IMG/VR virus record: IMGVR_UViG_3300023179_000112
Coordinates: 1 to 61,768 of that record
From: a virus
Taxonomy: Duplodnaviria; Caudoviricetes
Reading direction: 5' to 3' (one strand)
Length of the DNA: 61,768 nt
Positions 437 through 28,535 of the stretch are shown here, one piece after another (position 1 is the first letter of the stretch; the number at the start of each line of letters is the position of its first letter). The position numbers and the translations under genes were made by a program. Under the pieces are notes generated by a model. It was not told the DNA's origin, did no database searches, and saw only the letters and a program-made list of their open reading frames with translations.

Positions 437-632
437 TCTCAAATTCCTCATACCGTTGCACAAGGTCTTGAACTTCTATTCTTGCACGGCGCAGACCTTG
501 GATAACGCCACACAAATTCCTATATTCAGCAAAATCTTTACATCCACCTTCGGCAATAGACTCACTTACTTCACGTTCGCGTTCTTTTAATTTATTAAAT
601 AAATGGTCAAGTATCATCCGTTCATTTGCCAT
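429..632 (-). CDS. Small conserved head-module hypothetical protein
   Basis: Coupled to portal stop; DFAEYRNLCGVIQGL pattern typical of the small gene after portals in such phages. Confidence 0.65.
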   Translation of the reverse strand: MANERMILDHLFNKLKEREREVSESIAEGGCKDFAEYRNLCGVIQGLRRARIEVQDLVQRYEEFEND

Positions 633-3016
633 TATTGGTTACCCCGCTTCATTGCAGATTTAAGTAAGTCGGCTTGGATCTTTTTATCATCCCGTTTATC
701 TTGGCTTTGCAGTCGAATGTTTTCTTTCTGTGCTTCAAGCTGTATACGTTCTTTCTCGTTTTGCAGTCGGCCTTGTGCAAGCGCAACGTCGGCTTGATCC
801 TTAGCAGCTTTGCGCTGCTGCTCCATACCTTTAATCTGAAGTTCTTGTTGCTGCATCTGAACCAGAGGATCTTGAGCAATTGCTTGAGCTTGTTGTTGAG
901 CAGCTTGGGCTTGATGAATTTGCAACACTTGTTGCGCTGCTTCTGCCACATATTTAGCCATTGCAAGTTCTTCGGCTTCAGAAATATCTTGCTCCGGTCC
1001 CGGTAGCGGTGCACCCACACGCTGTTCAATCTCTTGCCTATATCTAAATCCTAAATGCTCAGCAACGTGAGCCATCATTGCAGCCTGCATCTGCTGCGCC
1101 ATCGGGTTTTGCCCAATAGTCTGCATAATGCTTGGGTCTTGCAAAAAGGTCATATGCGTTGTGATATGCGCCTGATGATCCTGATAAATAAACGCTTTCA
1201 GCGGTGTGCCTTTAAGCACGTTCATATTTTCAGTGATTGGATCTTTAGGCTTTTGATCGTCAGGCAGCGGCACAAGTTTGTCAGCGTTAGGAATACCAAG
1301 TACGTCAAGCATCTGCCTGTGAAGCCGTGGGAGGTCGTAAAGCTGAGGCGCACCCTGAGCAAGCTGTAAGGCAGCTTGGTATTGCACAACCCGTTGAGCC
1401 ATTGTTGAAGCGTTAGGGTCGGACACAGGGATTACTTCAATTACATCGTAGTCCTCAGCTTTAACCTGTGGTGTGCCATCTTGGGGTACATAACTGTAAT
1501 CTGGGCCAGTGTATTCCCTGATAATTTCTTTTAGCAGCTTAAACTCTTCTTTCATCGCTGCATGGATGCGAGCTTGTACTGCACCCATTGTTTTTAACTG
1601 ACGCTCTAAGAGGGCTAGGGTGGTACCCACCGGAGCCTGACTCGACATATCGCTGACTTTCATATCAGCCATACCACTGAGTCTTCGCGCTTCTTCGGTG
1701 ATCTGATTTAACAAAGCAAGAAGAACTTGGCTTGGTTCTTTATATGGCAACGGTAAGATGTTGTCTCTGATTACACCGCCCGGAACATCCACATCTCTCC
1801 ATTCACCGGGAGCAATCGGCGTATCGTCACCTTTGATACGCAGACCTCTGGATTTCAAACCACCCGGAAGATTAGATAAAGAACCCGCGTCAACCAACTG
1901 ACGAATCAGCATGGTGCCTGCTGTGGCGTAGCCACCAATAATATGTATCAACCCAAAGCCATAAGCCCCAAAGCCGGGAACATACATGTAGTGTACAAAG
2001 TGTTGTCTTGCTGCTTTGCGTGGGTCGTCTTCTTTATAATTGCGACGAATTGCTAAAACCTTATTAGTCCCCTTATCAATGGTAATGACATAGGGCAACG
2101 GTAAATCTTCTTCGTATCCGGGCAAGTCATACTCAATATGCACTTCGTATATCTGATACCGCTCATCTTTGGTTTGCTCAACACCTTCTTTTTGTGCCTT
2201 GGCTTTTTCAATATCAGTCTGGTTAGCGTAGGGTTCACCAATATCTACGTCACAATAAAAACCGCTGACTTGCAAACGTTTAATATCATTTTTAGTTTTT
2301 CGCATCACATGCGTGAGGCGGTCTGTACGTCTGATGTTTGTTACGCCGTACGGTAGGATTATGTCCTCGGCGGGTATATAGAAGGACACCTGCCGCCCAA
2401 GTGATGGGTCGTAATAGACTTTTTTGAATGATGAACCGGCTAGCGCCACACCCCATAACGCACGTTCATGCTCAGAACGATACTCAGGCATTTTGTCTGT
2501 TAGCTGATAGTTCATATCAGCTTCAACACGCTTAGCTGCTTCTTCAATTTCAGGACTGGATGCGCCAATAATATTAGTTTTTACAGGCCCATCAGCGGGG
2601 AAAGTCTCCATAATAGATTCGCTCTGGAAGCGAATTGCAGCTTCGGTAAGCAGTGTGGAGAACACACCACAAGCACCATCCCAAGGCTCTGTCACGTTGT
2701 CATAGCGCAACCCAAGAACATCAAGCCCCTTAACATAAGTATCAACCCAATCTTTGCGGGAGTTAATGTCTGCTTCAACTAACTCCATAATGTCGCCAGC
2801 AATTTTTTGAAGCTCTGAGTCATCCATGTAGTCGGCAAGATTAGAGTCAAACTCCTCTTCTTCTTTACCGCTTTCTGGCATCAGATCAATCTCAACCCCA
2901 TCAATACCAATTGACACGCCTTCTGGATTAACAATTTCAATCTCAATAGGAGCTTCTTCGGTTGAAAGGCTGTCAATTCCTTGGGGTGCTGCGTACAGTG
3001 CTTTATCAATAGCCAT
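632..3016 (-). CDS. Portal protein
   Basis: 794 aa downstream of terL; PWDGACGV, GSSFKKVYYD, YGFGLIH motifs; Gln-rich coiled-coil C-terminus. Confidence 0.85.
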   Translation of the reverse strand: MAIDKALYAAPQGIDSLSTEEAPIEIEIVNPEGVSIGIDGVEIDLMPESGKEEEEFDSNLADYMDDSELQKIAGDIMELVEADINSRKDWVDTYVKGLDVLGLRYDNVTEPWDGACGVFSTLLTEAAIRFQSESIMETFPADGPVKTNIIGASSPEIEEAAKRVEADMNYQLTDKMPEYRSEHERALWGVALAGSSFKKVYYDPSLGRQVSFYIPAEDIILPYGVTNIRRTDRLTHVMRKTKNDIKRLQVSGFYCDVDIGEPYANQTDIEKAKAQKEGVEQTKDERYQIYEVHIEYDLPGYEEDLPLPYVITIDKGTNKVLAIRRNYKEDDPRKAARQHFVHYMYVPGFGAYGFGLIHIIGGYATAGTMLIRQLVDAGSLSNLPGGLKSRGLRIKGDDTPIAPGEWRDVDVPGGVIRDNILPLPYKEPSQVLLALLNQITEEARRLSGMADMKVSDMSSQAPVGTTLALLERQLKTMGAVQARIHAAMKEEFKLLKEIIREYTGPDYSYVPQDGTPQVKAEDYDVIEVIPVSDPNASTMAQRVVQYQAALQLAQGAPQLYDLPRLHRQMLDVLGIPNADKLVPLPDDQKPKDPITENMNVLKGTPLKAFIYQDHQAHITTHMTFLQDPSIMQTIGQNPMAQQMQAAMMAHVAEHLGFRYRQEIEQRVGAPLPGPEQDISEAEELAMAKYVAEAAQQVLQIHQAQAAQQQAQAIAQDPLVQMQQQELQIKGMEQQRKAAKDQADVALAQGRLQNEKERIQLEAQKENIRLQSQDKRDDKKIQADLLKSAMKRGNQ

Positions 3017-3024
3017 TTTTTATC

Positions 3025-3801
3025 CTAAATTAGCTTGTTATTTCCAGCTTGCGGAATATGCCCGCCCCAAGAAAATCCTAATTTTGATTTAATTTTCTGC
3101 ATGGTGCTTTCTTCTTTTTCTTTTTCTTTTACCCGAGTATATGGTGCAATATCTCTTGGGTCTAGCCTAGTCTGACGCAGTCCTGTTAGCGCGTTGTATG
3201 TTTCCCGCACATCTTTATCGGCAAATAATGTTTTTCTAAGTACTGGGTCTTTAGTTAAATCAACATTTTTAGAAGATTCAAGACCAGCCAAAGACGCTAA
3301 TATTTCGTAAAACCCAACACCAAAGTCGTTTCCTGTCATTGCTCGCATAGCAACAGGATCAAAATAAGCGTTTTTTACAAGCCCATATTTTTCTTCCAAA
3401 TACGGAAGGGATTTTATAGCATTTGATACAAACATGCTTCGTTTTACTTTACCGTCTTTATCTCCAATCAATTCATCAAATTTTTGGTTAACTGAACTAC
3501 CTTCTCCTAGATTCTGTCTGGCTAGTAAATGCTCAATCTCATGAGCAATTGTTGCGTCCGATGCACTAGGACGTACAAATACGTTTTGCTGTAGTTTGCG
3601 ATTTTCCGGTATGTTTCGCGGGTTGGAAAGCACAAATCCCGAAACATTTGAATCTTCTAGAAAAGGCATTTCCCGCACCAACAGCCCCGGAAGCCCTGCC
3701 GCAGTGGATGGGAGTTGTCGTTTTGAAATTGATGTATATTCTTCTGAACTGGGAAGTTGTTCGTCTCTAAGATATTCCCGAGTTTTGAGATCGTATTTCA
3801 T
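3025..3801 (-). CDS. Hypothetical protein with HExxH zincin-like motif
   Basis: ATIAHEIEHLL; lies between terL and portal. Confidence 0.55.
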   Translation of the reverse strand: MKYDLKTREYLRDEQLPSSEEYTSISKRQLPSTAAGLPGLLVREMPFLEDSNVSGFVLSNPRNIPENRKLQQNVFVRPSASDATIAHEIEHLLARQNLGEGSSVNQKFDELIGDKDGKVKRSMFVSNAIKSLPYLEEKYGLVKNAYFDPVAMRAMTGNDFGVGFYEILASLAGLESSKNVDLTKDPVLRKTLFADKDVRETYNALTGLRQTRLDPRDIAPYTRVKEKEKEESTMQKIKSKLGFSWGGHIPQAGNNKLI

Positions 3802-3804
3802 AAT

Positions 3805-5343
3805 TTATCCTAAATAGTAACCTCGTTTTTGCCCACGAAAGCCCCGAAAATAGCGTATATCGTCTGGTTCATCAGACGGTAGCGAAATAAACCCACCTTG
3901 CCTGAAACGCAGCAACGCTTGCGTCATTGTATCTACGTAGTCGTCATGCTCGCCAACAGGAAACGCAGCGACTTCTTCAATAACTTCCCTAGCCCACCGT
4001 GTGTCTGGTGCCCAAACTTTACCACTTGCAAATATATCAGCAACTGAATTAACACGAACGTGCTTATCGTTACCCCTTGAAGGGCTGAACTCCTGTATTG
4101 GCACCCCTACACGCCGCATTTCTTGTATAAGTGGTGCCCCTGCTGCTTTCTTTTCTATGATCACCGCATCAGGTTCATATTCCTTGTACATCTCTAAGGC
4201 GCGTTCTTTTAATACAGGAAAATTCATACGCGCTTTAAATGCATCAATTAATATTAAATTAGGTGCACCGCCATCTTCGTCGTTATACCAGATACCCCAT
4301 GTTGTGCACGCAGTATAATCTGAAGATGTTTTAGTTTCATGCGCCGTATCCCAAGATTGAATAATATATTCGCAGCGCGGTGGGTCTTCATGTTCCCACA
4401 CTCTCCACATATTACGTTGAATGACTGCTGCCGCATCACTTGTTGGCTGCTGCATATACTGCGCTTGCCAATAGCGCGGGTCCATTGCTGCTTTTTTAGC
4501 TTTTAATTGATCGAGGGGCCATTGTTCGGGCCATAATGATTTTTCATTATTTTCATTTTCGTTTAGTATTGCAGGTAATTCAACCAATTCCCACGGGTCT
4601 GATTCAGGATTTTTAATTTGATAATCAAGTAATTTACCCGTTAAGTCAATTAAACTCCAACGAGTCATAATAACTATGATCGCTCCTCCCGGCATTAACC
4701 GTTGTAGCGGTCCTGTTTGAAACCACGACCATGCTTGATCAAAAGTTAACCTTGAATTAGCTTTTATGTCTTGCTCAGAATGAGGATCGTCAATAACAAA
4801 CAAATCAGCACCACGCCCAGCCAAAGCCCCGCCCACACCAACAGCATAATATTGACCTCCGGCTCCGGTAGACCATTTTCCGGCGGCTTTTTGATCTTCT
4901 GCAAGGGCTGTTTTTGGAAAAATTTCTTGATATTCATTGGAATTTACTAAATTTTTAACACGCCGACCAAAATCTTCTGATAAAGAAGCCGTGTGCGTAC
5001 CCATAATAATTTTTTTATCTGGAAACTGCCCTAAAAACCACGCAGGAAACAAATAAGAACTGAATTCTGACTTACCCATACGCGGCGCAATATTAATAAT
5101 TACCCGTTTTTTGCGTCCTGCCACCACATCTTCAAATATTTTTGCTAGTTTTCTGTGGTGTGCGCCTTCTTTAAAACCCGGATATATGTGATGCGAAAAA
5201 GAAAGCATCGAAGAACGCGATTTTTTAAGAGATTTACGCCTATCATACTCGTCAAGAAGCGTCAAAACCTCCAGCTTTTCTGCTTTTGGTATCTGTGGCA
5301 GCATCTGCCGCAGCGCTTCAGCCTCGTAATCACTCAGATTCAA
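3805..5343 (-). CDS. terL: Terminase large subunit
   Basis: Walker A IAPRMGKS, Walker B LFVIDD, IMTRW, nuclease SWDTA and HDDYVD; probable TTG start at 5343 with GGAG upstream, overlapping terS end. Confidence 0.93.
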   Translation of the reverse strand: MNLSDYEAEALRQMLPQIPKAEKLEVLTLLDEYDRRKSLKKSRSSMLSFSHHIYPGFKEGAHHRKLAKIFEDVVAGRKKRVIINIAPRMGKSEFSSYLFPAWFLGQFPDKKIIMGTHTASLSEDFGRRVKNLVNSNEYQEIFPKTALAEDQKAAGKWSTGAGGQYYAVGVGGALAGRGADLFVIDDPHSEQDIKANSRLTFDQAWSWFQTGPLQRLMPGGAIIVIMTRWSLIDLTGKLLDYQIKNPESDPWELVELPAILNENENNEKSLWPEQWPLDQLKAKKAAMDPRYWQAQYMQQPTSDAAAVIQRNMWRVWEHEDPPRCEYIIQSWDTAHETKTSSDYTACTTWGIWYNDEDGGAPNLILIDAFKARMNFPVLKERALEMYKEYEPDAVIIEKKAAGAPLIQEMRRVGVPIQEFSPSRGNDKHVRVNSVADIFASGKVWAPDTRWAREVIEEVAAFPVGEHDDYVDTMTQALLRFRQGGFISLPSDEPDDIRYFRGFRGQKRGYYLG

Positions 5344-5896
5344 CGACTTTCTCCGTTGCAGCAACCTCAATAGCGCCCATATATTTACCAAGTTTTGCCT
5401 TGATTTTGGATTCAATCTCCTCATCAGACATCTCAACCTTTTTAACTTCTGTTCGCTCAGTAAATAGCGCTACTTCAGTCACTTTACCCAACATCTCCAA
5501 CGCTTTTAATCTGTAACGCGGGTCTGGGTGTTTTGTATCTTCTAAAATTTTAGCTACAGCGTATCCGCGCATCTGCCGAGCTTGTTCAACAAACGCCCAA
5601 TCATACGCAGTTAACATGCTTACAAGATTACGCACCGCCCTTGGCGTTGTATTTGCCAATAATTTTTCTTTTATTTTTTCTGTTGAAGCACCCGCTGCCA
5701 TTGCAGCAAACGCAAGCTGTGCGCTTTTGTGTTGTGCATTTTCTTCAACTTCTTCATCAGAAACTGCACCTATCGATTCTAAAAAATCTGCCGTGGCTAC
5801 TTGAGCATCTAGCACTTCTTGCGCAGACGCTTTGTCAACGGGCGTATATTTAGGCGCGTCGTCGTATATGGATGGTTGTATCAAATGTTCAAACAT
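5330..5896 (-). CDS. Putative terminase small subunit
   Basis: Directly upstream of terL; RLKALEMLGK helix typical of TerS; likely start MFEHL at 5896. Confidence 0.6.
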   Translation of the reverse strand: MFEHLIQPSIYDDAPKYTPVDKASAQEVLDAQVATADFLESIGAVSDEEVEENAQHKSAQLAFAAMAAGASTEKIKEKLLANTTPRAVRNLVSMLTAYDWAFVEQARQMRGYAVAKILEDTKHPDPRYRLKALEMLGKVTEVALFTERTEVKKVEMSDEEIESKIKAKLGKYMGAIEVAATEKVVESE

Positions 5897-5944
5897 GTTG
5901 AGGGAAAAGGGCACCTCGTTAATTTGGCATAGAATAATTCTTTG

Positions 5945-5974
5945 TTGACAATAATGCAAGTGTTGTAGTATATT
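5945..5974 (+). promoter_or_regulatory. Sigma70-like promoter driving the putative sRNA
   Basis: TTGACA (5945-5950), 18 nt, TATATT (5969-5974). Confidence 0.6.
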
Positions 5975-5980
5975 CTGTTT

Positions 5981-6054
5981 TGTAGCTTGGCATCCATGCT
6001 ACTCTCCTTGGTCATGTAAAGACCTTTATTCCCGGCTGCGCCGGGAATTTTTTT
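5981..6054 (+). ncRNA. Putative small RNA with anti-Shine-Dalgarno seed
   Basis: Promoter upstream, intrinsic terminator at 3' end, no plus-strand ORF, two short hairpins flanking TCTCCTT; complementary to several phage RBSs. Confidence 0.55.
6028..6054 (+). terminator. Rho-independent terminator
   Basis: ATTCCCGGC-TGC-GCCGGGAAT stem followed by a T run on the plus strand only. Confidence 0.8.
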
Positions 6055-6062
6055 GTTTGTTT

Positions 6063-6080
6063 ATGTCAAACATTAGACAT
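6063..6080 (-). promoter_or_regulatory. Operator-like motif copy (ATGTCTAATGTTTGACAT)
   Basis: Matches 7556-7573 (reverse), 8745-8762 and 23663-23680. Confidence 0.55.
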
Positions 6081-6341
6081 TATTTTAGAGAAATTTTATA
6101 AAATTTTTATAGCGTTATTATTTATTTTGATAGGGGCTGTGTTTGTAAAAATGTGGGGTGTGGGAGACAAATAGTGTCACACGAAGCCCCCCCACCTACC
6201 TGACGCACTGGGGGGATACGGGATAGGTGGGGTTGCAGACACGACGTTGCTTGATCTGTTTTACAGCAACAGCCCAGTTCTCTCAAAGTCGTCACCGTAT
6301 ACTGAAAGTGTCGAGTCTGCTCTATGACTCGATAGGTGAGC

Positions 6342-6359
6342 CGGACGGATTTCCGTCCG
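6342..6359. repeat. 18-bp palindrome copy 1 (CGGACGGATTTCCGTCCG)
   Basis: Variant copy; extended stem AGC..GCT followed by a T run, so also terminator-like. Confidence 0.85.
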
Positions 6360-6426
6360 GCTTTTTGTTTGTGTGGCTTGGCGAGACAGCGATGCTTCTC
6401 GCAGGTTTCACACTGTGTCAATCAAT

Positions 6427-6444
6427 GGGACGGATTTCCGTCCG
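6427..6444. repeat. 18-bp palindrome copy 2 (GGGACGGATTTCCGTCCG)
   Basis: Variant copy just upstream of the RBS of ORF 6457. Confidence 0.85.
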
Positions 6445-6456
6445 AAAGGAAACACC

Positions 6457-6870
6457 ATGTCTAACTACACCAACGCCGCCGCCGCAGGCTTAGCCCTTGG
6501 TCAGCAGAGTCGCCTTACTCATCAGGCAACCCTCGCCTTGTCCAAGACCTACGCGAAGTCCGAGGCGGATGTCCGTAAGCAGATGCGGGTTGACTTCATG
6601 GTCAGCTTCATCCAAGGCGCACTGGACATTGACAAAGCCAAGGCCGAAGGCGTCCTTGCAACTTCACGCGATGACCGTACCACGGCACAGCAACGTGCCT
6701 ACGCTCAAGGCTCGGACAAGTTTGCATACCACATAGTGCGGGATGCAAACGAAAGCAAAGCCAAAAGCAAAAATAGTACTGACGTTGTAACGCAGTGCAA
6801 GAAGTACGTCGATAGCAAGAGCTTGACAAAAGCTCAACTCAAGAAGCTCATTGGGCTTCTCTCAGCCTAA
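6457..6870 (+). CDS. Early hypothetical protein (basic, Ala/Lys-rich)
   Basis: AAAGGA RBS then ATG 6457; first gene of plus-strand block. Confidence 0.75.
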   Translation: MSNYTNAAAAGLALGQQSRLTHQATLALSKTYAKSEADVRKQMRVDFMVSFIQGALDIDKAKAEGVLATSRDDRTTAQQRAYAQGSDKFAYHIVRDANESKAKSKNSTDVVTQCKKYVDSKSLTKAQLKKLIGLLSA

Positions 6871-6880
6871 TCACCAACAC

Positions 6881-6898
6881 GGGACGGAATTCCGTCCC
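6881..6898. repeat. 18-bp perfect palindrome copy 3
   Basis: GGGACGGAATTCCGTCCC. Confidence 0.95.
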
Positions 6899-6919
6899 AA
6901 CAACTTTAGGAGAAATACC

Positions 6920-7117
6920 ATGTCAACATACTGGCACGACTCATTCACCAAGCTCAGCGCCAAGCAAATGCTCGAAGCCAAGTTCGAGGAGGAAATTGGC
7001 AAGCATGACGACAAGCGCGAGAGCAAGCTCGAACGTGGCACTCAGCCACCCACCAACGACCAAGTACTAAAACTACTATGGCGATTTAACCAAAACAAAC
7101 CCTCACGTTGGCTTTAG
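6920..7117 (+). CDS. Early hypothetical protein
   Basis: AGGAG RBS, ATG 6920; bounded by palindrome copies 3 and 4. Confidence 0.7.
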   Translation: MSTYWHDSFTKLSAKQMLEAKFEEEIGKHDDKRESKLERGTQPPTNDQVLKLLWRFNQNKPSRWL

Positions 7118-7119
7118 TT

Positions 7120-7137
7120 GGGACGGAATTCCGTCCC
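7120..7137. repeat. 18-bp perfect palindrome copy 4
   Basis: GGGACGGAATTCCGTCCC. Confidence 0.95.
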
Positions 7138-7146
7138 GCTGTCAAC

Positions 7147-7532
7147 ACTTCTCCACAACGTGTTGTGGAGAAGTACCCCATTTTTAGGGGTGTCCAGTGC
7201 ACCCCAGTTTTTTGTCTACGCGGACACCCACATGGACAGGCGCAAAGCCCCGTGGCACGGGGCAAAAGCGTGTATCTGTCTGTCTGTCTATCTACATATA
7301 CATATATATTATTAGGTAGGCATAAGTAGACACTTCCTCTTCTTCCTCAAATTTTGCCCAAGGTGCGAAGCTCTTGGATTTTGATGGACATCTGGACACT
7401 TTTGCTGCTTTCTCGACAGTACATGGGCGCAGCACTGTCCACTTTCTCCGATTAAGATTCGGCACAAATTGCTTAAAAGTCCCGTAGTTATTGGGTAAAC
7501 TACTGTCCACTTCCAAGTGGACAATGTGGACA
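7147..7532. other. Non-coding iteron/inverted-repeat region, candidate replication origin
   Basis: Eight TGGACA/TGTCCA hexamers, several inverted repeats, AT-rich run 7291-7313. Confidence 0.45.
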
Positions 7533-7571
7533 CTTTTGGTATTTAATAGCCCTTTTTGTCAAGGAGTAGAC

Positions 7572-8075
7572 ATGTCAGACCCCAAAACAACCCACTCACG
7601 CACCTGCATCAAGTGCGATCTCACGTTTCCAACCTCCCATTTCCGCTATCGCGGAACACGTGCCCAAGCCATTGCAAAAGGACTCTTAGGCAACCGTCTG
7701 CCGTGGCTTGACTCCAAGCTCTGCCGCCAATGCAGACCCCCACGCACCCCACTGCGTAAGATCACACGCAACGAGCTAGCCAACCGACTCGCGGCAGGTG
7801 ACATCTCTCAGATCACGTACGACAACGAGATCAAACGACGCATGCAGGAGGAGAGCAGGCGTAAGAGTGAGTACATGACCATGCACCACGCCATGCGCAA
7901 GTACCTCTCACTTAAACCTGCCGACATCAAACTATTCCTGCTTGAGAAAACCATACGCGAACAACAAGCCAAAGAATTCAAACAAGAAAGCGCTCAAGCC
8001 AAACAGAGCGAAGCCCTATCAACCCCCAAACGAAAGCGAGGTAGACCACCCAAGAAACTAATCCCAACGATCTAA
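7572..8075 (+). CDS. Zn-finger plus AT-hook-like DNA-binding protein
   Basis: CIKC...CRQC and C-terminal KRKRGRPPKK; AAGGAG RBS. Confidence 0.65.
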   Translation: MSDPKTTHSRTCIKCDLTFPTSHFRYRGTRAQAIAKGLLGNRLPWLDSKLCRQCRPPRTPLRKITRNELANRLAAGDISQITYDNEIKRRMQEESRRKSEYMTMHHAMRKYLSLKPADIKLFLLEKTIREQQAKEFKQESAQAKQSEALSTPKRKRGRPPKKLIPTI

Positions 8076-8082
8076 CGCAACT

Positions 8083-8100
8083 GGGACGGAATTCCGTCCC
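8083..8100. repeat. 18-bp perfect palindrome copy 5
   Basis: GGGACGGAATTCCGTCCC. Confidence 0.95.
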
Positions 8101-8134
8101 ACATCTTTATGTCCTCATATTTTAAGGAAAAACT

Positions 8135-8683
8135 ATGAACACATTTCATATTCAGCCTTCGTCGGAGCTTGCAAAGCAAGCAGTAACAGAAGTTCGGGAG
8201 TTTCCTCCCGACACCCTCATCGCCGTACGCGGCGAATATTTTGACGGCAGAGAGGAAGTTTACACGGTCAGTGCATGCCCTGACCAACAAGATCCGAGCA
8301 GGTATATGTGGAAATATGTGCTAGCCAGAGATTGGCTAGCCGATTACGAGGAGCGTGAGCACGTTGACAAGCGCTATGCCAGTCACGCCGAAGGGTTCCG
8401 TAATTCTAAGATTGGAGAAATACAGGACAAGCTGAATACGCTGTTCAAAAAGAAAATATGGGCAGTGCAGTTACAAGAGTTCCCCACGAGCGAGCGCATG
8501 TCAGTGGAGGACGTGTACAAGTGGTGTGATGAGCCTCACGACAAGGCTCTGTGCAGGTGGAGACAGATAGCCCTCGCCCTACAATGGCCCCACGCAGTCT
8601 TTTACCGCATACCCAACACGAAGTATATGGGGTTTAGGTTTGGACTGAAGGGGCACCAGTACATGAGTTTGTATAGCAGCTAA
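8135..8683 (+). CDS. Early hypothetical protein
   Basis: TAAGGA RBS, 182 aa, bounded by palindrome copies 5 and 6. Confidence 0.7.
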   Translation: MNTFHIQPSSELAKQAVTEVREFPPDTLIAVRGEYFDGREEVYTVSACPDQQDPSRYMWKYVLARDWLADYEEREHVDKRYASHAEGFRNSKIGEIQDKLNTLFKKKIWAVQLQEFPTSERMSVEDVYKWCDEPHDKALCRWRQIALALQWPHAVFYRIPNTKYMGFRFGLKGHQYMSLYSS

Positions 8684-8685
8684 CT

Positions 8686-8703
8686 CGGACGGAATTCCGT
8701 CCC
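8686..8703. repeat. 18-bp palindrome copy 6
   Basis: CGGACGGAATTCCGTCCC (17/18 match). Confidence 0.93.
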
Positions 8704-8744
8704 ACTCCCACAAACATCTTAAGGAGAACTGCAATGCATAAATA

Positions 8745-8784
8745 ATGTCTAATACTTGACAATTAACCCGTTTTATGGTCTAAT
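8745..8784 (+). promoter_or_regulatory. Sigma70-like promoter overlapped by operator-like motif
   Basis: TTGACA 8756-8761, 17 nt, TCTAAT with extended TG; motif ATGTCTAATACTTGACAA 8745-8762. Confidence 0.55.
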
Positions 8785-8815
8785 CATATTTTACAAATAC
8801 GTTAAGGAGTTTCAC

Positions 8816-9949
8816 ATGGATATGCAAAACATGCTCTCACACGCCCAAGTCACGTCTGCGATCAAAGCGTTCCACGCTAGCGGTGTGCGGCGTACCATCT
8901 ACGTGCAGGGTGAGAACGGCATAGGCAAGACTGCCTGTGTCATGGCGCTGCGCAACGACCCACAGTTCGCTAACCACATCTTCGTCGATCCCATCGACGC
9001 AACGCAGATGTCTGACGGGTCAGTGTGGATGCCTGACATTGACCGCGAGGCAGGTGTGTCACGCGAGCTACCCAACGAGCGCTTTGGTCTGAGCAAGACT
9101 AACCGACTCGGCGTCAACGGCTCACGCCCTGTCGTGGTGTTCCTCGATGAGGTGGACAAAGCACCGCAGTACATACAGAACGTACTTGCGCCCATCATGT
9201 ATGACTACCGTGTCGGTGACTATCACTTCCCCGAAGGGTCGCTCGTCATTGCTGCGTCTAACCTTGGCGCTGAGGGTCTCGGTGATAGCACACGTGCACA
9301 CATCCGCAGCAGACGCATAACAGTGCAGATGCGCAAGCCCACGCAGCCTGAGTGGAAAGAGTATGCGATCAACAAGGGACTCGACTATCGAGTGATCGCT
9401 GCAACAAGTCAGTATCCCTCGCTGTTTGACTCATTCCTCGACTATGAGGAGGGGGGCAAGCATCACGGCAAGACGCTCAAGCTCGACAACCCTGACATCT
9501 ACAACCCACGCGAGACACAAGACAGCTACGCGTCGCCTCGCACATTCGAGGCATCGTCAGACATCGTGCGCTGTATTGACATGCTGGATGCGCAGACGCT
9601 ACGTGCGCTGCTGTGGGGTGCGGTGGGTGTGGCTGCTGAAAAGATCCTGACTGTCATACGCCTCGGTAACACGCTGCCCGACTATGCGCTGGTGTGTAAC
9701 GACCCCACGGGTGCGCCGTTGGTCAGCGACCCCATAGCACAGGTCGTGCAGGTGCAGCAGTTTGTATCACGTGCCAAGAGTAGGGACGAGGCAGCAGCGC
9801 TGACCACATACGTGATGCGCATGCCGCGTGAGGAGCACAAGCAGTTGTTCATCAACCAGATCGCTAACTCATCAAAGGTGACGTTCTTCTACACCGTTGA
9901 GCCGTTCCAGTTGATGCTGAAGGAATACAACAAGTTTGTGAATGTTTGA
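8816..9949 (+). CDS. MoxR-like AAA+ ATPase
   Basis: Walker A GENGIGKT, Walker B VVFLDEVDK, IAASN, SPRTF; TAAGGAG RBS before ATG 8816. Confidence 0.85.
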   Translation: MDMQNMLSHAQVTSAIKAFHASGVRRTIYVQGENGIGKTACVMALRNDPQFANHIFVDPIDATQMSDGSVWMPDIDREAGVSRELPNERFGLSKTNRLGVNGSRPVVVFLDEVDKAPQYIQNVLAPIMYDYRVGDYHFPEGSLVIAASNLGAEGLGDSTRAHIRSRRITVQMRKPTQPEWKEYAINKGLDYRVIAATSQYPSLFDSFLDYEEGGKHHGKTLKLDNPDIYNPRETQDSYASPRTFEASSDIVRCIDMLDAQTLRALLWGAVGVAAEKILTVIRLGNTLPDYALVCNDPTGAPLVSDPIAQVVQVQQFVSRAKSRDEAAALTTYVMRMPREEHKQLFINQIANSSKVTFFYTVEPFQLMLKEYNKFVNV

Positions 9950-9973
9950 TCAGTAGTTCGTTGCTGTAACCAC

Positions 9974-9991
9974 GGGACGGAATTCCGTCCC
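9974..9991. repeat. 18-bp perfect palindrome copy 7
   Basis: GGGACGGAATTCCGTCCC. Confidence 0.95.
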
Positions 9992-10032
9992 ACAAGGAAC
10001 CCAAACAAACCCCAACCACAAGGAGAGTTACC

Positions 10033-10905
10033 ATGACACGTTTCAACATAGATACCTGCTCACTACTCGTTGAGTTCAACGCGTCCGTGTGGACGGCGCG
10101 TAAGCTCGACAAGAAAACAACCGACGAGGTTGTGTTCAGCAAGAACGCTGCCGCTAAAGATGCAGCACGGGTCAACAAGCACCTGCTCGCAGGTCGCAAC
10201 GAGCTGGACGTGATCCAGACTTACATTGGCAGTGTGCGTACGTTTGTGTACGAGAACACCATGCCGTGGTCTGACAATGGCTTGCGCCTGCTGCCGACGA
10301 CGTTCTTCATGGAGTTCAGCAAGCGTATGCACAACAGCGAGGACACGTTCTTCTCGTACGTTGAGGACTTCATCAGGGTCTACCCGTCACTCATCACAGC
10401 ACAAGCGATGGCGCTCGGTGACATGTTCAGGCGCGACGACTACCCCACACCTGACGAGTTACAGAATAAGTTTGCGTTCAAGGTCAACTACATGCCTGTC
10501 CCCACAGCGGGTGACTTCCGTGTGGACGTGGGCAACGACGCACAGAAAGAACTTCAGGACAAGCTCAACAAGCTCGCAGATGATCGTGTCGAGGCAGCGA
10601 TGCAAGACATACGTCAGCGACTCAAGACGCACCTCACGCGCATGCAGGACAGACTAGGTTTTGATGAGGTGGACGGCGAGAGTAAGACGCGCAAGTTTCA
10701 CGACTCGCTCGTCACGGGTGCGCTTGAGTTATGCGACATGGTCAAGCACCTCAACATCGTGGGGGACGTTGAGCTTGAGCAGGCGCGAGTAGGTCTGGCA
10801 CAAACACTTAGCGGTGTGGATGCTAAAGAATTGCGTACGAACCTCGCAGTACGTGAGGACGTGCGCAAGAACGTCGATGCACTCATCGACAAGTTGTCGT
10901 TTTAA
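10033..10905 (+). CDS. DUF3150-like protein
   Basis: WTARKLDK, NKHLL, TMPW..GLRLLP, LGDMF..DDYP pattern; position between AAA and VWA genes. Confidence 0.6.
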   Translation: MTRFNIDTCSLLVEFNASVWTARKLDKKTTDEVVFSKNAAAKDAARVNKHLLAGRNELDVIQTYIGSVRTFVYENTMPWSDNGLRLLPTTFFMEFSKRMHNSEDTFFSYVEDFIRVYPSLITAQAMALGDMFRRDDYPTPDELQNKFAFKVNYMPVPTAGDFRVDVGNDAQKELQDKLNKLADDRVEAAMQDIRQRLKTHLTRMQDRLGFDEVDGESKTRKFHDSLVTGALELCDMVKHLNIVGDVELEQARVGLAQTLSGVDAKELRTNLAVREDVRKNVDALIDKLSF

Positions 10906-10928
10906 TTTTAACCACAAGGAGAGTAGCT

Positions 10929-12113
10929 ATGTCATACACTACACTTAACCCACGTGAGCGTGTCGTTGCAGTAGGCATCGACTTCACAAAAGATATACGG
11001 TTCGCACAACTCAGTTGTGTCGCTGTGGTTGGCGACATCGAGATTTCTGACCGCATACAGTACGCTGCGACTAACGGTCGTGACGAGGTCTATAACCCTG
11101 ACTTCGTGATGGCACAGAATCGCAAGCAGATGCGATACGTCCGTGCACATGAGTTGTTACATAAACAACTCAAGCATTGTCACGCATACCGTGATGTGTG
11201 TAATAAGTATCCATACGAGACTAACGTAGCGATGGATATTGTAATTAACCTGATGATTGAGGAGATCGACCCACACTTCACGTTCGTCGAGCGTCCAACA
11301 GTTGACTTCCACATCGACCCTCACTATGCCAACTGGGGCTTCCTGCGTATTCTGCAAGATCTTATCAAGAAGGGTAATGGGGGTAATGGTAAAGGTGTAG
11401 GAGATCAACGTGGCTTCGATACGCACGAGTTCAATGAGCTTAGTGACGAAGAGCTTGACGAGCTTAAGCCCATCATCGAGGAGGCAGCACGTCAGGGTCA
11501 GTTACTTGCTGAGAAGTTAACAGCGGGTAACAAGGGTAGGGGCAAGCGTCTCAACATTCAGGCAACGCAGTCACGCACCGACTGGCGGCAGCACATGCGC
11601 GAGTTCTTCACAACGATTTGTGCAGGCGATGAACACTCACGGTTTGCACCGCCCAACAAACGCCTCGCACCACAGGGGTATTTGTTGCCATCACACTTTT
11701 CATACAACAAGGGGGACATCATCATTGCCTGTGACACATCAGTCTCTATGGCAAGACATTACGGTATGTTGTTCGGTGAGATTGCACGTATCGCTGAGGA
11801 CGTTAAGCCCGACAGCATTCGCATCTTGTGGTGGGACACATCCGTGTGTGGAGATCAGAAGTTTGAGCCACATCAGTACGCAAACATTGCAGCACTTATG
11901 AAACCTGCGGGGGGCGGCGGTACAACCCCTGACTGTGTTGTGCGGCACATCGTTGATAAGCAGTACAAACCACGTGCAGTCATCTGGCTAACCGACGGCT
12001 ATCTGTACGGCCCTGCGCCGGTGGTCAACGTGCCTGTGCTGTGGGGTGTCGTCAACAACGAGCACTTCGTTGCACCCGAAGGTAAAACCATTCACATCTA
12101 CGGGCAACTGTAA
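10929..12113 (+). CDS. HExxH metallopeptidase-like plus VWA domain protein (DUF2201-like)
   Basis: AATNG, AHELLH, MIDAS DTSVS, GGGGT, LTDG. Confidence 0.85.
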   Translation: MSYTTLNPRERVVAVGIDFTKDIRFAQLSCVAVVGDIEISDRIQYAATNGRDEVYNPDFVMAQNRKQMRYVRAHELLHKQLKHCHAYRDVCNKYPYETNVAMDIVINLMIEEIDPHFTFVERPTVDFHIDPHYANWGFLRILQDLIKKGNGGNGKGVGDQRGFDTHEFNELSDEELDELKPIIEEAARQGQLLAEKLTAGNKGRGKRLNIQATQSRTDWRQHMREFFTTICAGDEHSRFAPPNKRLAPQGYLLPSHFSYNKGDIIIACDTSVSMARHYGMLFGEIARIAEDVKPDSIRILWWDTSVCGDQKFEPHQYANIAALMKPAGGGGTTPDCVVRHIVDKQYKPRAVIWLTDGYLYGPAPVVNVPVLWGVVNNEHFVAPEGKTIHIYGQL

Positions 12114-12139
12114 ACAACCAGTGTCACTTCTTTCTTTAC

Positions 12140-12155
12140 GGGGACATATGTCCCC
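12140..12155. repeat. 16-bp palindrome related to the 18-bp family
   Basis: GGGGACATATGTCCCC, intergenic, same GGGAC/GTCCC arms. Confidence 0.6.
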
Positions 12156-12176
12156 ATTTACTTCAGGAGAGTAATC

Positions 12177-12701
12177 ATGGAAGCAAATCAAACCTTCATC
12201 AACGCCATCATCAATTCAGTAGTCAACCTCGTCATCACACGTATCGGTGAGCTTGGTCTCGTTTCAGACATACACAAACGTCTTGATGACATCGAGAAAA
12301 AAGTCGATGAGCGCAAGCCTGAGCTTGAACAATCCCTTGAGATGCTGCTGCAACAAAGCACGTGGTTCGGTGATCTCATTGCTAAACAAGTTGACATGCG
12401 TATTGAGGAGCAAGATATTGATTCAAACATGCGCAACATTGCTGAAGAAGTTATTGACGCCTGTGTCAATGATGTCGTGACACAGAAGATCGACAACTAT
12501 GACTTCTCAAGCGCTGTACACGATGCAGTCAACGACATCATTGGCGACTATGACTTCAGTGATGAGGTTTCTTCGTGCGCTAGTGACTTGGACTTGGTGT
12601 CCGACGACGGATGCCGCGAGATCTTTGAGGAGATGTTTGACGAGCGCTTCAACGACAAGCTCAAGGGTTTAACTGTTAGCGTACAACTACAAGGAGAGTA
12701 A
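12177..12701 (+). CDS. Acidic hypothetical protein
   Basis: AGGAGAG RBS; Asp/Glu-rich with YDFS repeats. Confidence 0.7.
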   Translation: MEANQTFINAIINSVVNLVITRIGELGLVSDIHKRLDDIEKKVDERKPELEQSLEMLLQQSTWFGDLIAKQVDMRIEEQDIDSNMRNIAEEVIDACVNDVVTQKIDNYDFSSAVHDAVNDIIGDYDFSDEVSSCASDLDLVSDDGCREIFEEMFDERFNDKLKGLTVSVQLQGE

Positions 12702-12703
12702 TC

Positions 12704-13075
12704 ATGGGATATAGATCAGACGTAGCGTATGTCATCAAGTTCAAAACAATCGAAGAGCGCGACGCGTACGTGACGTACATGTCAGCAAAGAATGATGAAC
12801 ACATTAAGCAAGCTTTGACAGAAGTGGACTTCTCTGACAAAGAAGATCCGATCATTACATTTAAAGCAGAAAATGTGAAATGGTACAACGGATATCCTAG
12901 TGTCGAGGCGCACAAGTTTATCTACAGCCACGCGCATGAGCTTGAGGTGGCATCGTTTCGCTTCATAGCAGTGGGTGAAGATGGACAAGAAGAATGCGAA
13001 GAAGAAGTGATAGCGTACATTGATAACCTGCACGAGTACCTTTATGCAGTACACAAAATTGCAACAAACTTTTAA
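12704..13075 (+). CDS. Hypothetical protein
   Basis: AAGGAGAG RBS; MGYRSDVAY N-terminus. Confidence 0.7.
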   Translation: MGYRSDVAYVIKFKTIEERDAYVTYMSAKNDEHIKQALTEVDFSDKEDPIITFKAENVKWYNGYPSVEAHKFIYSHAHELEVASFRFIAVGEDGQEECEEEVIAYIDNLHEYLYAVHKIATNF

Positions 13076-13092
13076 TCACAAGGAGAGTAATC

Positions 13093-14061
13093 ATGGGTTT
13101 CACAGCTAACTTCAATCAAGTATATGCCGTCCACAAGTACGAAGATGCGGATTGGTTTTTCAACAAGATCACACCCGTTAAGTCAGCCAAATGGGGTAAA
13201 GATCAACGTCCGCTTGGTCGGCGTACTGCGTGGCACTACAGGCTAGAACGTGGGCAAGACGCAGCCCACTATGACGTGTGCCTGTATCACACCAAAATGA
13301 TCCGTTACGTCAAGCCCGATCAGCATGGTTATCGTGAGGTGTACATCCGTGGGCACGACTCAAACACATCACGTTCGTTCCTCGCGCACAACATACACCA
13401 GTGCTACAACGGTCACGGTGCGCGGTTCACTGATACAAAAAACACAGTGCGCTTCGTACCGTTTTCGCCGTATACGCACGGGGCAGATTGGTCAGCACGT
13501 CTGGTCTTTGATCCCAACGGCAGACTTGTTGTGGAGCGCAGTGAGCACCTGCCCATCTATCGCGCTACGGTTACGACTGAACAGCGTGAGAAACGTGCGG
13601 AGTTACGCAAACAACTTAAGGTTATAAACATGCTCGCTGCGCTGCGCATAGACACATACCGAGCCAACGCCGAGTGGGAGGAAATAAGGGCGTATAAAGA
13701 GACGTTGGCAACACGAACTATCAACAACCTCAAACGTGACGTGCAAAGGTGTGGAAAAGACCTAAACGATGCAGACTTTGTAGCGTCTATTCTTGAGGAT
13801 CTTGGGCAGAAAGTCTTTGACAATCTGTACTCACACCACCTCACTAAAAATGACCTGATAGTCGGCAGTCGCCGGTCGATGAGTGGTCAGTATTTACGTG
13901 ACTCAGCGTCTACACTTGCGACTAATATAAAGGTTAAGCAGTTCACTGCTGCGCTTGAACGTGCGGTGATGCAGGTGTTCAGTCTGGACGGTAAAGATGG
14001 ACGTGAAGCCTATCCAGACTTCATGCCAAGCAGTGACGTGCCCAAAACTTATCTTTGGTAA
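13093..14061 (+). CDS. Hypothetical protein
   Basis: AAGGAGAG RBS, 322 aa. Confidence 0.75.
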   Translation: MGFTANFNQVYAVHKYEDADWFFNKITPVKSAKWGKDQRPLGRRTAWHYRLERGQDAAHYDVCLYHTKMIRYVKPDQHGYREVYIRGHDSNTSRSFLAHNIHQCYNGHGARFTDTKNTVRFVPFSPYTHGADWSARLVFDPNGRLVVERSEHLPIYRATVTTEQREKRAELRKQLKVINMLAALRIDTYRANAEWEEIRAYKETLATRTINNLKRDVQRCGKDLNDADFVASILEDLGQKVFDNLYSHHLTKNDLIVGSRRSMSGQYLRDSASTLATNIKVKQFTAALERAVMQVFSLDGKDGREAYPDFMPSSDVPKTYLW

Positions 14062-28351: not shown

Positions 28352-28535
28352 TATTGCTTTTCCGTGGGAGCATGTCCCACTAGGAGGCGGGTTTTTTGTC
28401 CCTACACTCAATCCACAACGTACTATAGAGAAAGCACATAGGGCAGCTATGACTGCCCGTGTGTTTCACTTCAAGAGCATACCCTGCATCATTAACGGGA
28501 AACTTGGCGTCTATTTTCAGCGGTTGCGGCGATGA
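28314..28535 (+). CDS. Small hypothetical protein
   Basis: FPWEHVPLGGGFFVP; last gene of the plus block, 3' overlap with giant gene. Confidence 0.55.
   Translation: MQSESQSQKSRTDIAFPWEHVPLGGGFFVPTLNPQRTIEKAHRAAMTARVFHFKSIPCIINGKLGVYFQRLRR

Follow-up and report, generated by a model that had tools for sequence, protein, structure and literature searches.

In T4-type phages, the promoter-early stem-loop (PeSL) joins a sigma-70 promoter to a stem-loop (PMC2839356, PMC4122927), and the Cluster O mycobacteriophages carry a 17-bp dyad repeat of unknown function, present in more than 30 copies genome-wide with no preference of orientation (PMC4351075). Hairpins also serve as promoters in N4 and LUZ7. 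Those of N4 have a conserved loop of 3 nt, the central base of which is a purine, and specific stem bases at positions -11, -10, and -8, and the virion RNA polymerase (vRNAP) reads the loop center together with specific stem bases (PMC4496689). LUZ7 has nine early hairpin promoters; its middle promoters are GC-rich stems of at least 6 bp with 3- to 4-nt loops, located about 15 bp upstream of the start, and transcription starts approximately 13 to 15 nt from the hairpin center (PMC9163698). The present study concerns an 18-bp palindrome, GGGACGGAATTCCGTCCC, that occurs seven times among the early rightward genes of an aquatic phage, IMG/VR virus record IMGVR_UViG_3300023179_000112. The whole record (61,768 bp, estimated to be 96% complete) was analyzed and is called the window.

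The hairpins formed by this palindrome resemble T4 PeSLs in being short intergenic stem-loops between the stop codon of a small early gene and the next Shine-Dalgarno (SD) motif, within plastic early regions, and in that close relatives differ by insertions, deletions, and replacements located at the motifs. However, the PeSL motif contains a strong sigma-70 promoter, whereas copies 2 to 5 and copy 7 have no adjacent promoter-like element. Moreover, PeSL stems do not have one fixed sequence, whereas here a single exact stem is used per genome, is specific to the lineage, and switches in concert; and PeSLs belong to T4-type phages, whereas the genomes studied here, of about 60 kb, belong to a different group. 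The Cluster O repeat shares the invariant inverted arms, the short variable center, the many copies, and the location mostly at or near gene boundaries, but in the present family there are 3 to 10 copies per genome, restricted to the early region, with pairing extensions and with arms that differ between lineages. Intergenic stem-loop punctuation of cassettes (T4 PeSLs) and unexplained dyad repeats (Cluster O) are already known. In this family, hairpins of a common geometry occupy a common position, are confined to the early region, are uniform within a genome, and change type in concert between close relatives. We infer their function from this pattern; that the hairpin sequence changes along with the first early gene is a hint of a recognition system not yet described.

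Hairpins of the window and of related genomes

A search of the window for GGGACGGAATTCCGTCCC with up to three mismatches returned exactly seven matches, compared with none in 100 dinucleotide-preserving shuffles. The matches start at 6342 (three mismatches), 6427 (two), 6881, 7120, 8083, and 9974 (none each), and 8686 (one), the same seven positions listed in a preliminary description of this DNA made from its letters. At up to two mismatches, a search of the whole record recovered six of the seven sites and nothing outside 6427-9991, and a backwards control pattern gave no match, in keeping with the earlier statement that no copies lie elsewhere in the 61.8-kb genome. The related sequence previously noticed at 12140 was also found and is GGGGACATATGTCCCC (12140-12155). 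All of these hairpins fall within the first 6 kb of the rightward block. The distances from the preceding stop codon to the 16-nt core were 11, 3, 8, 3, and 25 nt for copies 3 to 7, respectively, which agrees with the range of 2 to 24 nt counted earlier to the 18-mer. An SD-like motif and an ATG follow copies 2, 3, 5, 6, and 7, so that most copies do lie ahead of a ribosome-binding site, as had been described. Neither copy 1 nor copy 4 directly precedes a gene, copy 4 being followed by a 430-nt noncoding stretch. When folded as RNA, the seven copies and the hairpin at 12140 gave energies of -10.6 to -22 kcal/mol, with stems of 6 to 11 bp and 4-nt loops; the loops of the copies are AATT or ATTT.

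All eight hairpins are given on the plus strand. Copy 1 (6339-6372) has an 11-bp stem, AGCC-GGACGG/CCGTCC-GGCT (6339-6362), with the loop ATTT and a T-run (-22 kcal/mol; z, -5.7). The compensatory C..G outer pair that had been pointed out in this copy is present and forms part of the longer stem; the outer position is unpaired in copies 2 and 6. By its sequence, copy 1 has the shape of an intrinsic terminator, placed in the leader ahead of the first early gene. Copy 2 (6427-6444) is a 6-bp core hairpin with the loop ATTT (-11.2 kcal/mol), abutted by the SD-like AAAGGAAA, and the first early gene starts at 6457. Copy 3 (6881-6898; 7-bp stem, loop AATT, -14.3 kcal/mol) has the stop codon of that gene 10 nt upstream and AGGAG 10 nt downstream. 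Copy 4 (7120-7137; 7-bp stem, -16.1 kcal/mol) begins 2 nt past the stop codon of the open reading frame (ORF) at 6920-7117. Copy 5 (8082-8101; 8-bp stem, -15.1 kcal/mol) lies past the stop codon of ORF 7572-8075 and forms the left edge of a cassette at 8135-8683, the right edge of which is copy 6 (8686-8703; 6-bp core hairpin, -10.6 kcal/mol). Copy 7 (9974-9991; 7-bp stem, -14.3 kcal/mol) is found 24 nt past the stop codon of the ATPase gene, ahead of the DUF3150 gene. The single hairpin at 12140-12155 (-11.9 kcal/mol), between a VWA-like gene and ORF 12177-12701, has a different stem, GGGGAC/GTCCCC, referred to below as type B.

To place the window among its relatives, 59 family loci were taken from IMG/VR by an exact-pattern scan and an ATPase-based search, and a recurrent hairpin family was counted where a stem of at least 6 bp occurred in at least three copies per locus. 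Such a family was present in 35 of the 59 loci compared with none of 59 locally shuffled ones, and no recurrent GC-containing hairpin family of at least 6 bp was found in three complete, unrelated genomes (HTVC027P, DSL-LC04, and the N4-like TR2). At least 12 stem sequences occur across the loci. The stem GGACGG/CCGTCC (type A) is that of the window, L005, L032, L035, and L020, and type B is that of L024, L033, L034, and L036; the others are GTAGAC/GTCTAC, GGACAG/CTGTCC, GGGACA/TGTCCC, GGGTTC/GAACCC, GTGGAG/CTCCAC, GTGGAC/GTCCAC, GTGGGA/TCCCAC, GGTGTG/CACACC, GCAGAG/CTCTGC, and GTTGAC/GTCAAC, among others. An exact motif scan of the genome and its relatives, as proposed in the preliminary description, indicated that the motif is restricted to the early region in the window and that the relatives carry stems of their own. 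One type dominates each locus: in the 38 loci with at least three copies of a listed type there were 185 copies of the major type and 25 of other listed types, the 25 including double counts from overlapping definitions, and all loci read backwards gave 7. In four further genomes (97 to 100% complete), the copies were likewise confined to one early stretch of 3 to 5 kb, with backwards controls of 0. Two arrangements were seen in individual loci: the distant relative L076 has tandem hairpin pairs 25 to 30 nt apart (2168-4770), and two hairpins of L079 (9025 and 9648) lie inside a larger duplicated unit with identical flanks.

Base pairing frequently extends beyond the core. Among 167 unique hairpins from 39 loci, at least one further Watson-Crick pair was present in 93 and at least three in 40, compared with 31 and 2, respectively, when the 3' partner was slid by 3 nt. 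The extensions are copy specific and compensated; for example, window copy 1 has AGCC..GGCT where the orthologous copy of L035 has AGCG..CGCT. The arms, of 6 to 7 bp, are identical within a genome, and the loops and stem extensions vary, with five different 3-nt loops in L053, six 4-nt loops in L056, and nine loops in the ten copies of L082. Loops in the relatives range from 3 to 7 nt and have no conserved base within a lineage; in the GTAGAC lineage all 28 unique loops start with A on the coding strand and most are A/C-rich, and both loop orientations are found in some lineages, such as L057 (AAAAC and GTTTT). A single type B genome can have arms 4, 6, or 7 nt apart. At the seventh position of the 12 unique copies with a spacing of at least 6 nt, the pairs were G.T (6 copies), A-T (4), T.T (2), and A.C (0), which keeps a 7-bp stem with a 4- to 5-nt loop on the plus (coding) strand. 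Within a genome, compensated changes occurred only outside the core and never inside it. From the copy-specific compensated extensions and the restored stem of type B, we conclude that pairing is under selection and that, inside the core, so is the sequence itself. The hairpin interpretation offered in the preliminary description is thereby supported, since the stem extensions are complementary copy by copy and the relatives keep a hairpin with a different stem. No Rfam family reached its gathering score, and a tRNA scan found none. The early RNase III sites of T7 are long duplexes of about two helical turns. The present stems, of 6 to 8 bp and 11 bp in copy 1, are shorter than a duplex of this type, which had been suggested as one possible role.

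A consistent placement relative to genes was observed among 165 unique hairpins. An SD motif and a start codon lie within 60 nt downstream of 124 of them, the SD motif at a median of 12 nt from the stem end (quartiles, 8 and 19) and 21.5 nt from the hairpin center, and the spacer between hairpin and SD motif contains 7% G compared with 25% in the loci overall. At several junctions the repeated unit is longer than the palindrome and includes a common spacer with CACAAACATCTTAAGGAG. A T-run follows 18 of the 165 hairpins and, in the window, copy 1 but none of copies 2 to 7, so the hairpins as a class do not look like intrinsic terminators. In L071, L074, and L075, the hairpin ahead of the ATPase gene lies past a -35/-10-like element read by eye and would therefore sit in a 5' leader. 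The hairpin is therefore a unit in its own right, which can lie at a 3' end, at a 5' end, or between two cistrons. A promoter scan of 5000-14000 listed none beside the seven copies, and a -35/-10-like element was seen by eye about 50 nt past copy 6. It belongs to a junction module (8704-8815, plus strand) that consists of a G-poor spacer with CACAAACATCTTAAGGAGAAC (a strong SD motif), a mini-ORF of 3 to 4 codons, TTGACA with a -10-like element, and the SD motif of the ATPase gene. The module is conserved across L005, L024, and L033 to L046, which have four stem types, and in relatives with approximately 65% ATPase identity its -10-like element is TATAAC at a 17-nt spacing. The putative promoter within the module is our own reading by eye and was not among the promoter-scan listings. 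Contigs from RNA libraries span copy 7, for which DNA carryover is a possible source.

Hairpin type, the first early gene, and exchanged cassettes

When the loci were ordered by ATPase identity, types A and B were interleaved. The ATPase of L035 (type A) is 99% identical to that of L036 (type B) and 97% identical to that of L024 (type B), compared with 90% to that of the window (type A), and the ATPases of L033 and L034 (type B) are 95% identical to that of the window. L035 has eight type A copies, and L036 has five exact and one imperfect type B copies; the F5 proteins of the two, like their ATPases, are 99% identical. At three junctions (after the F5 gene, before the ATPase gene, and after the ATPase gene), it is mainly a hairpin-bearing segment of about 20 to 40 bp that differs between L035 and L036, with flanks that are largely conserved and with gene-specific upstream flanks. 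Unless selection or an active mechanism favors uniformity, it is difficult to account for three or more independent short replacements in one of two near-identical genomes, and the concerted switch is likewise difficult to account for if nothing reads the stem sequence specifically.

The first early gene (6457-6870, plus strand) encodes a 137-aa protein of family F10/F4. This family has two deep branches, F10 and F4, with members of 120 to 155 aa that combine a variable N-terminal helical domain with a conserved C-terminal motif, (K/R)xVDxV...LTxxQ...L. Among pairs of the A/B group with ATPases at least 90% identical, the first-gene proteins were 61 to 97% identical when the hairpin type was the same and 9 to 29% identical when it was different. 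The same was observed between L039 (GGACAG stem, F10) and L040 (GTAGAC stem, F4), whose ATPases are 90% and first-gene proteins 19% identical, and the F10 branch accompanies GGACRG hairpins in three diverged clades (those of the window, L020, and L039). Among the genes compared, the first early gene alone tracks hairpin type in both family and sequence; a small F8 protein does so in the A/B group and not in the L039/L040 group. Every change of hairpin type is accompanied by a change of family in the first early gene, which makes the product of this gene a candidate type-specific factor. This protein had no Pfam or PHROG match. Its 157 homologues are all metagenomic, with no informative name among the 120 listed, and unnamed viral clusters were the only matches in the Atlas; one homologue is labeled "predicted DNA binding protein" by JGI. 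An AF2 model of it was confident and all helical (pLDDT, 83) but matched no known fold. Foldseek found nothing in the PDB at an E value of 0.001 or below, the best Z score in a wide VIA search was 4.9, and the best BFVD match was an uncharacterized phage protein (E, 0.004).

Two other proteins were considered as readers and rejected. The preliminary description had named the Zn-ribbon/AT-hook protein of family F5 (7572-8075) as a possible binder. This protein does not track hairpin type, as its identity is 99% between L035 and L036, which differ in type, and 47 to 52% within type A. An early factor that binds the hairpins is plausible, but the candidate that follows the type is the first early gene (6457-6870) and not the 7572 protein. 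The giant virion protein had at first looked promising: in the trio of the window, G001, and G005, its C-terminal 857 aa seemed to follow hairpin type, with 52% identity between G001 and G005 versus 83 to 91% for eight backbone genes. It was set aside, since L038 and L040 agree in hairpin type and first gene but their C-terminal modules are only 54% identical. The module is mosaic and does not follow hairpin type.

Cassette exchange was seen at several hairpins. The variable cassette gene (8135-8683, plus strand; 182 aa) lies exactly between copies 5 and 6. It is absent in L005 and L032, where one hairpin is left and the flanking matches overlap on it; a contig from run X16 skips 8076-8680, and other samples contain contigs that depart from the window at the 3' edge of copy 5 or copy 6. 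Beside copy 3, L005 and L035 carry one more cassette between hairpins, 270 to 290 bp long, and at the 12140 hairpin about 485 bp are inserted in L036. The earlier picture of units composed of stop codon, hairpin, ribosome-binding site, and ORF fits these observations well. The further suggestion that breakpoints of gene gain and loss fall at the repeats held in part: 7 of 18 breakpoint clusters (6000-12200) lie within 10 nt of a hairpin, which uniform random placement reached in 0 of 20,000 trials, but placement in intergenic DNA only reached it in 1,635 of 20,000, so that the enrichment is weak against the latter null, and some of the clusters are the hairpin replacements themselves. The hairpins are frequent, but not exclusive, points of exchange.

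Genome setting and neighboring elements

The window has a leftward late block (632-5959, continuing at 61691-28492) with terminase, portal, and structural genes and a 3086-aa protein, and a rightward block (6457-28351) that opens with small genes of unknown function. These are followed by genes for an AAA ATPase, DUF3150, a VWA/metallopeptidase-like protein, PolA, an exonuclease, an SNF2 helicase, and a DUF927 primase-helicase. A megablast comparison of 6000-14000 with named phages gave no match. By terminase, the nearest isolates are the Pelagibacter phages HTVC027P and HTVC023P and phage DSL-LC04 (49 to 52% identity), and the ATPase is 23 to 27% identical to those of N4-like phages. Near-identical DNA was present in freshwater, lake, and aquatic metagenomes from eight studies; the group is one of aquatic phages with genomes of about 60 to 67 kb, abundant and uncultured. 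The AAA ATPase, DUF3150, and DUF2201/VWA genes (8816-12113) form a conserved trio, and in the N4-like Salmonella phage TR2 an ATPase gene and a VWA-like gene are adjacent too, annotated as ATPase and HNH endonuclease.

The 3086-aa virion-type protein (28492-37752, minus strand) has a glycine-rich N terminus, a coiled coil of about 1700 aa, an HExxH motif, and, over its C-terminal 857 aa, a domain with LPD38. At least 1,724 homologues of this domain exist, with many invariant polar residues, and it is swapped as a module between genomes that are otherwise about 90% identical. Its AF2 model was poor (pLDDT, 57); a fold search returned helical hairpins only, and a profile search of PDB sequences gave coiled-coil chance matches only. 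In the divergent control region (5940-6340), we noted a sigma-70-like promoter close to consensus, TTGACA-18-TATATT (5945-5974), and a 9-bp hairpin followed by a T-run (6028-6048). The region also has an AT-rich stretch and a G-rich/C-rich segment (approximately 6150-6235) that is conserved in type A and type B relatives; it could contain a small RNA gene or early and late promoters. The noncoding stretch 7138-7571 (430 nt), between ORFs 6920-7117 and 7572-8075, contains a perfect palindrome with 13-bp arms (7147-7174), a terminator-like hairpin with a T-run (7187-7205), an AT-rich simple stretch (approximately 7270-7320), and at least five copies of TGTCCAC/GTGGACA in both orientations, including a palindrome at 7504-7523. 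The stretch may serve as an origin or as an operator region, and two arms that occur in it, GTGGAG and GTGGAC, are hairpin stems of other lineages.

Possible functions of the hairpins

We tentatively favor the interpretation that an intercistronic hairpin occurs throughout the family in lineage-specific forms, the type A palindrome being the form found here, and that it is read by a type-specific phage factor. The early rightward operon would presumably be transcribed by the host RNA polymerase, since no phage polymerase was found. In the transcript, each GC-rich stem of 6 to 11 bp, with its short loop, would lie a few nucleotides past a stop codon and typically be separated from the next SD motif by a G-poor spacer of about 12 nt, and it would act on a single strand, most likely mRNA, as a punctuation element. 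Copy 1 may bring about termination or attenuation, and the other copies may protect ends or insulate cistrons and thereby guard translation start regions. The stem would be read sequence specifically by a phage-encoded factor, for which the 6457-6870 product is the best candidate. Through identical junction units of 18 to 50 bp, cassettes would be gained, lost, and exchanged preferentially, but not only, at the hairpins, and such exchange would be a by-product, as with the T4 PeSL motifs. In a narrower and rather doubtful version, the hairpins would constitute an address code: the first-gene product would recognize the stem of every intercistronic hairpin in its own genome, on mRNA or on extruded DNA, and this recognition would be needed for early expression. 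Protein and hairpins would then change specificity together, and after the arrival of a new first-gene module selection or active conversion would rewrite the hairpins. In lambda N/boxB antitermination, boxB is recognized through its loop, and each genome has two sites. The present arrangement is similar in that the first early gene lies just past an RNA hairpin in its own leader and specificities differ between relatives, but here the loop is free, the stem is fixed, there are 3 to 10 sites, and the first-gene protein has no similarity to a named family.

Several observations weigh against a type-specific factor that reads the hairpins in mRNA. Invariant arms, a variable center, and a spacing that is constant in most lineages also fit a dimeric DNA-binding protein, and model searches revealed no recognizable nucleic-acid-binding fold in the first-gene protein. 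The association of this gene with hairpin type is correlative, with about three independent contrasts, and the gene is itself flanked by hairpins; moreover, the A/B pairs are known from partial contigs, so that co-switching genes outside them are possible. Uniformity is not absolute, as L024 (type B) has a type A hairpin ahead of its ATPase gene and the window has a type B hairpin at 12140 where L005 has type A. A hairpin after the ATPase gene occurs only in relatives with at least 90% ATPase identity and is missing at about 50 to 65% identity, indicating that positions are not conserved over long range. Wobble asymmetry did not separate RNA from DNA: an excess of A.C at outer positions reflects the background of A/C-rich flanks, and imperfect cores have four G.T and four A.C pairs. 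In addition to the weak enrichment of breakpoints over the intergenic-only null, a 123-aa gene (12704-13075) is absent in L036 and L086 with breakpoints at tight gene junctions without a hairpin, so that cassette gain and loss does not need hairpins. Finally, the RNA-level aspect is drawn from position and geometry, the four sequencing runs compared with the window being sets of contigs.

Purely structural RNA elements, such as partial terminators, attenuators, or 3' and 5' stabilizers, would need no specific reader, and their uniformity could arise from cassette spread and gene conversion. The terminator shape of copy 1, the location at stop/SD junctions, the common spacer with CACAAACATCTTAAGGAG, which would give homology for conversion beyond the palindrome, and the mixed types in L024 and at 12140 all suit this explanation, as does the report that T4 PeSL stem-loops act as terminators and mediate shuffling (PMC2839356). 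It nevertheless seems unlikely, as conversion should homogenize the loops too, whereas these are diverse and the arms invariant; pairing alone predicts compensated changes inside the core, whereas they were seen only outside it; L035 and L036 require at least three separate short-patch replacements with gene-specific upstream sides; and a T-run accompanies few of the hairpins. A double-stranded DNA site for a dimeric phage protein, acting as a roadblock or insulator at gene junctions in a manner comparable to the stoperators of the Cluster A mycobacteriophages, we consider quite unlikely. Such a protein would account for the invariant arms and variable center, for a spacing that is constant (3, 4, or 5 nt) in most lineages, for stem conservation beyond pairing needs, for the two loop orientations in lineages such as L057, and, by coevolution with its site, for the lineage-wise change in specificity; the Cluster O repeat, with 7-bp invariant arms and a 3-bp variable center, offers a parallel (PMC4351075). 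However, copy-specific complementary extensions would be meaningless for a duplex site, the arm spacing of type B varies by 2 to 3 bp within one genome, the loops of the GTAGAC lineage all have A as their first base on the coding strand, no promoters lie near the sites, and the G-poor, unstructured spacer beside the SD motif points to selection at the mRNA level.

The preliminary description had also proposed N4-like hairpin promoters, and such promoters, of the N4 or LUZ7 kind, extruded as single-stranded DNA and read by a very divergent injected or early phage RNA polymerase, appear improbable. The layout is N4-like, with an early block, replication genes, and a giant virion protein on the opposite strand, and several short GC-rich hairpins lie upstream of early genes at the genome start; phage TR2 has the ATPase/VWA pair as well. 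The LUZ7 early and middle hairpin promoters have a similar geometry (PMC9163698), lineage-specific uniform motifs upstream of SD motifs resemble polymerase-specific promoters, and the SD motif is far enough downstream for most copies, lying more than 15 nt from the hairpin center in 105 of 124 cases. In the remaining 19, including window copy 2, the distance is 15 nt or less, and a start there would cut the SD motif off. N4-like promoters require a virion or early single-subunit polymerase and conserved bases, but no polymerase was detected and the loops are free, being of 4 nt in the window and without a conserved base in the relatives, although N4 vRNAP reads the loop center (PMC4496689). 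A six-frame search for the T7-like polymerase domain PF00940 gave no match, the control for it being positive in no genome; the TR2 RNAPII subunits and vRNAP core had no match at an E value of 10 or below. The giant protein, with its coiled coil, HExxH motif, and LPD38, reached a best E value of 0.08 with TR2 vRNAP, and its C-terminal module does not track hairpin type (54% identity between L038 and L040, which share a type). Copy 1 is followed by a T-run, and copy 4 faces noncoding DNA.

It is very improbable that the hairpins are dedicated recombination sites, whether attC-like, REP/RAYT-like, or of a homing type, that mobilize the early cassettes. REP elements with RAYT transposases are species- or lineage-specific extragenic palindromes located after stop codons, and integron attC sites bound cassettes with hairpins, and both features are found here. 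The 8135-8683 cassette is bounded by two copies with one remaining where it is absent, L005 and L035 have additional cassettes between hairpins, contigs from other samples depart from the window at the 3' edge of one or the other of these two copies, and breakpoint clusters lie near hairpins. Unlike in those systems, however, six-frame searches at an E value of 1 or below revealed no tyrosine recombinase (PF00589; control positive in 14 of 14 genomes), and no Y1/HUH transposase was found (PF01797; control positive in 10 of 14 genomes), which speaks against the attC-like sites raised in the preliminary description. Breakpoint enrichment is weak against the intergenic-only null, and cassette insertions and deletions also occur at hairpin-free junctions. 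In approximately 185,000 species genomes, the 18-mer was found mostly at scattered single sites in unrelated taxa, with no more than two per stretch among 80 of at least 120 stretches; mimicry of host REP or CRISPR repeats was therefore rejected, as no REP-like or CRISPR-like arrays occurred among those 80 stretches.

A search of the full-text literature, with most subscription journals outside its reach, yielded no description of such a system, and none of the nearest described systems (the T4 PeSLs, the Cluster O repeat, and the N4/LUZ7 hairpin promoters) joins one stem per genome, many stems per family, restriction to the early region, and a concerted switch with the first gene. What appears to be new is a phage family that uses one exact stem at every early junction, with at least 12 alternative sequences, and in which, between near-identical genomes, the hairpin is replaced in concert at one junction after another along with the first early gene. 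This amounts to a natural swap experiment for finding a reader, and the chance that the hairpins reflect a new hairpin/protein recognition system is a real one. Should there be no reader, the family would still be a clear case of repeat-guided modular exchange outside the T4 group. If a reader is real, these phages would contain compact, orthogonal hairpin/protein pairs that control polycistronic expression, with relevance to early takeover of the host, to phage interference, and to insulators and switches in synthetic biology. Moreover, if the hairpins do act as an address code, coinfecting relatives could discriminate between self and nonself early transcripts or genomes.

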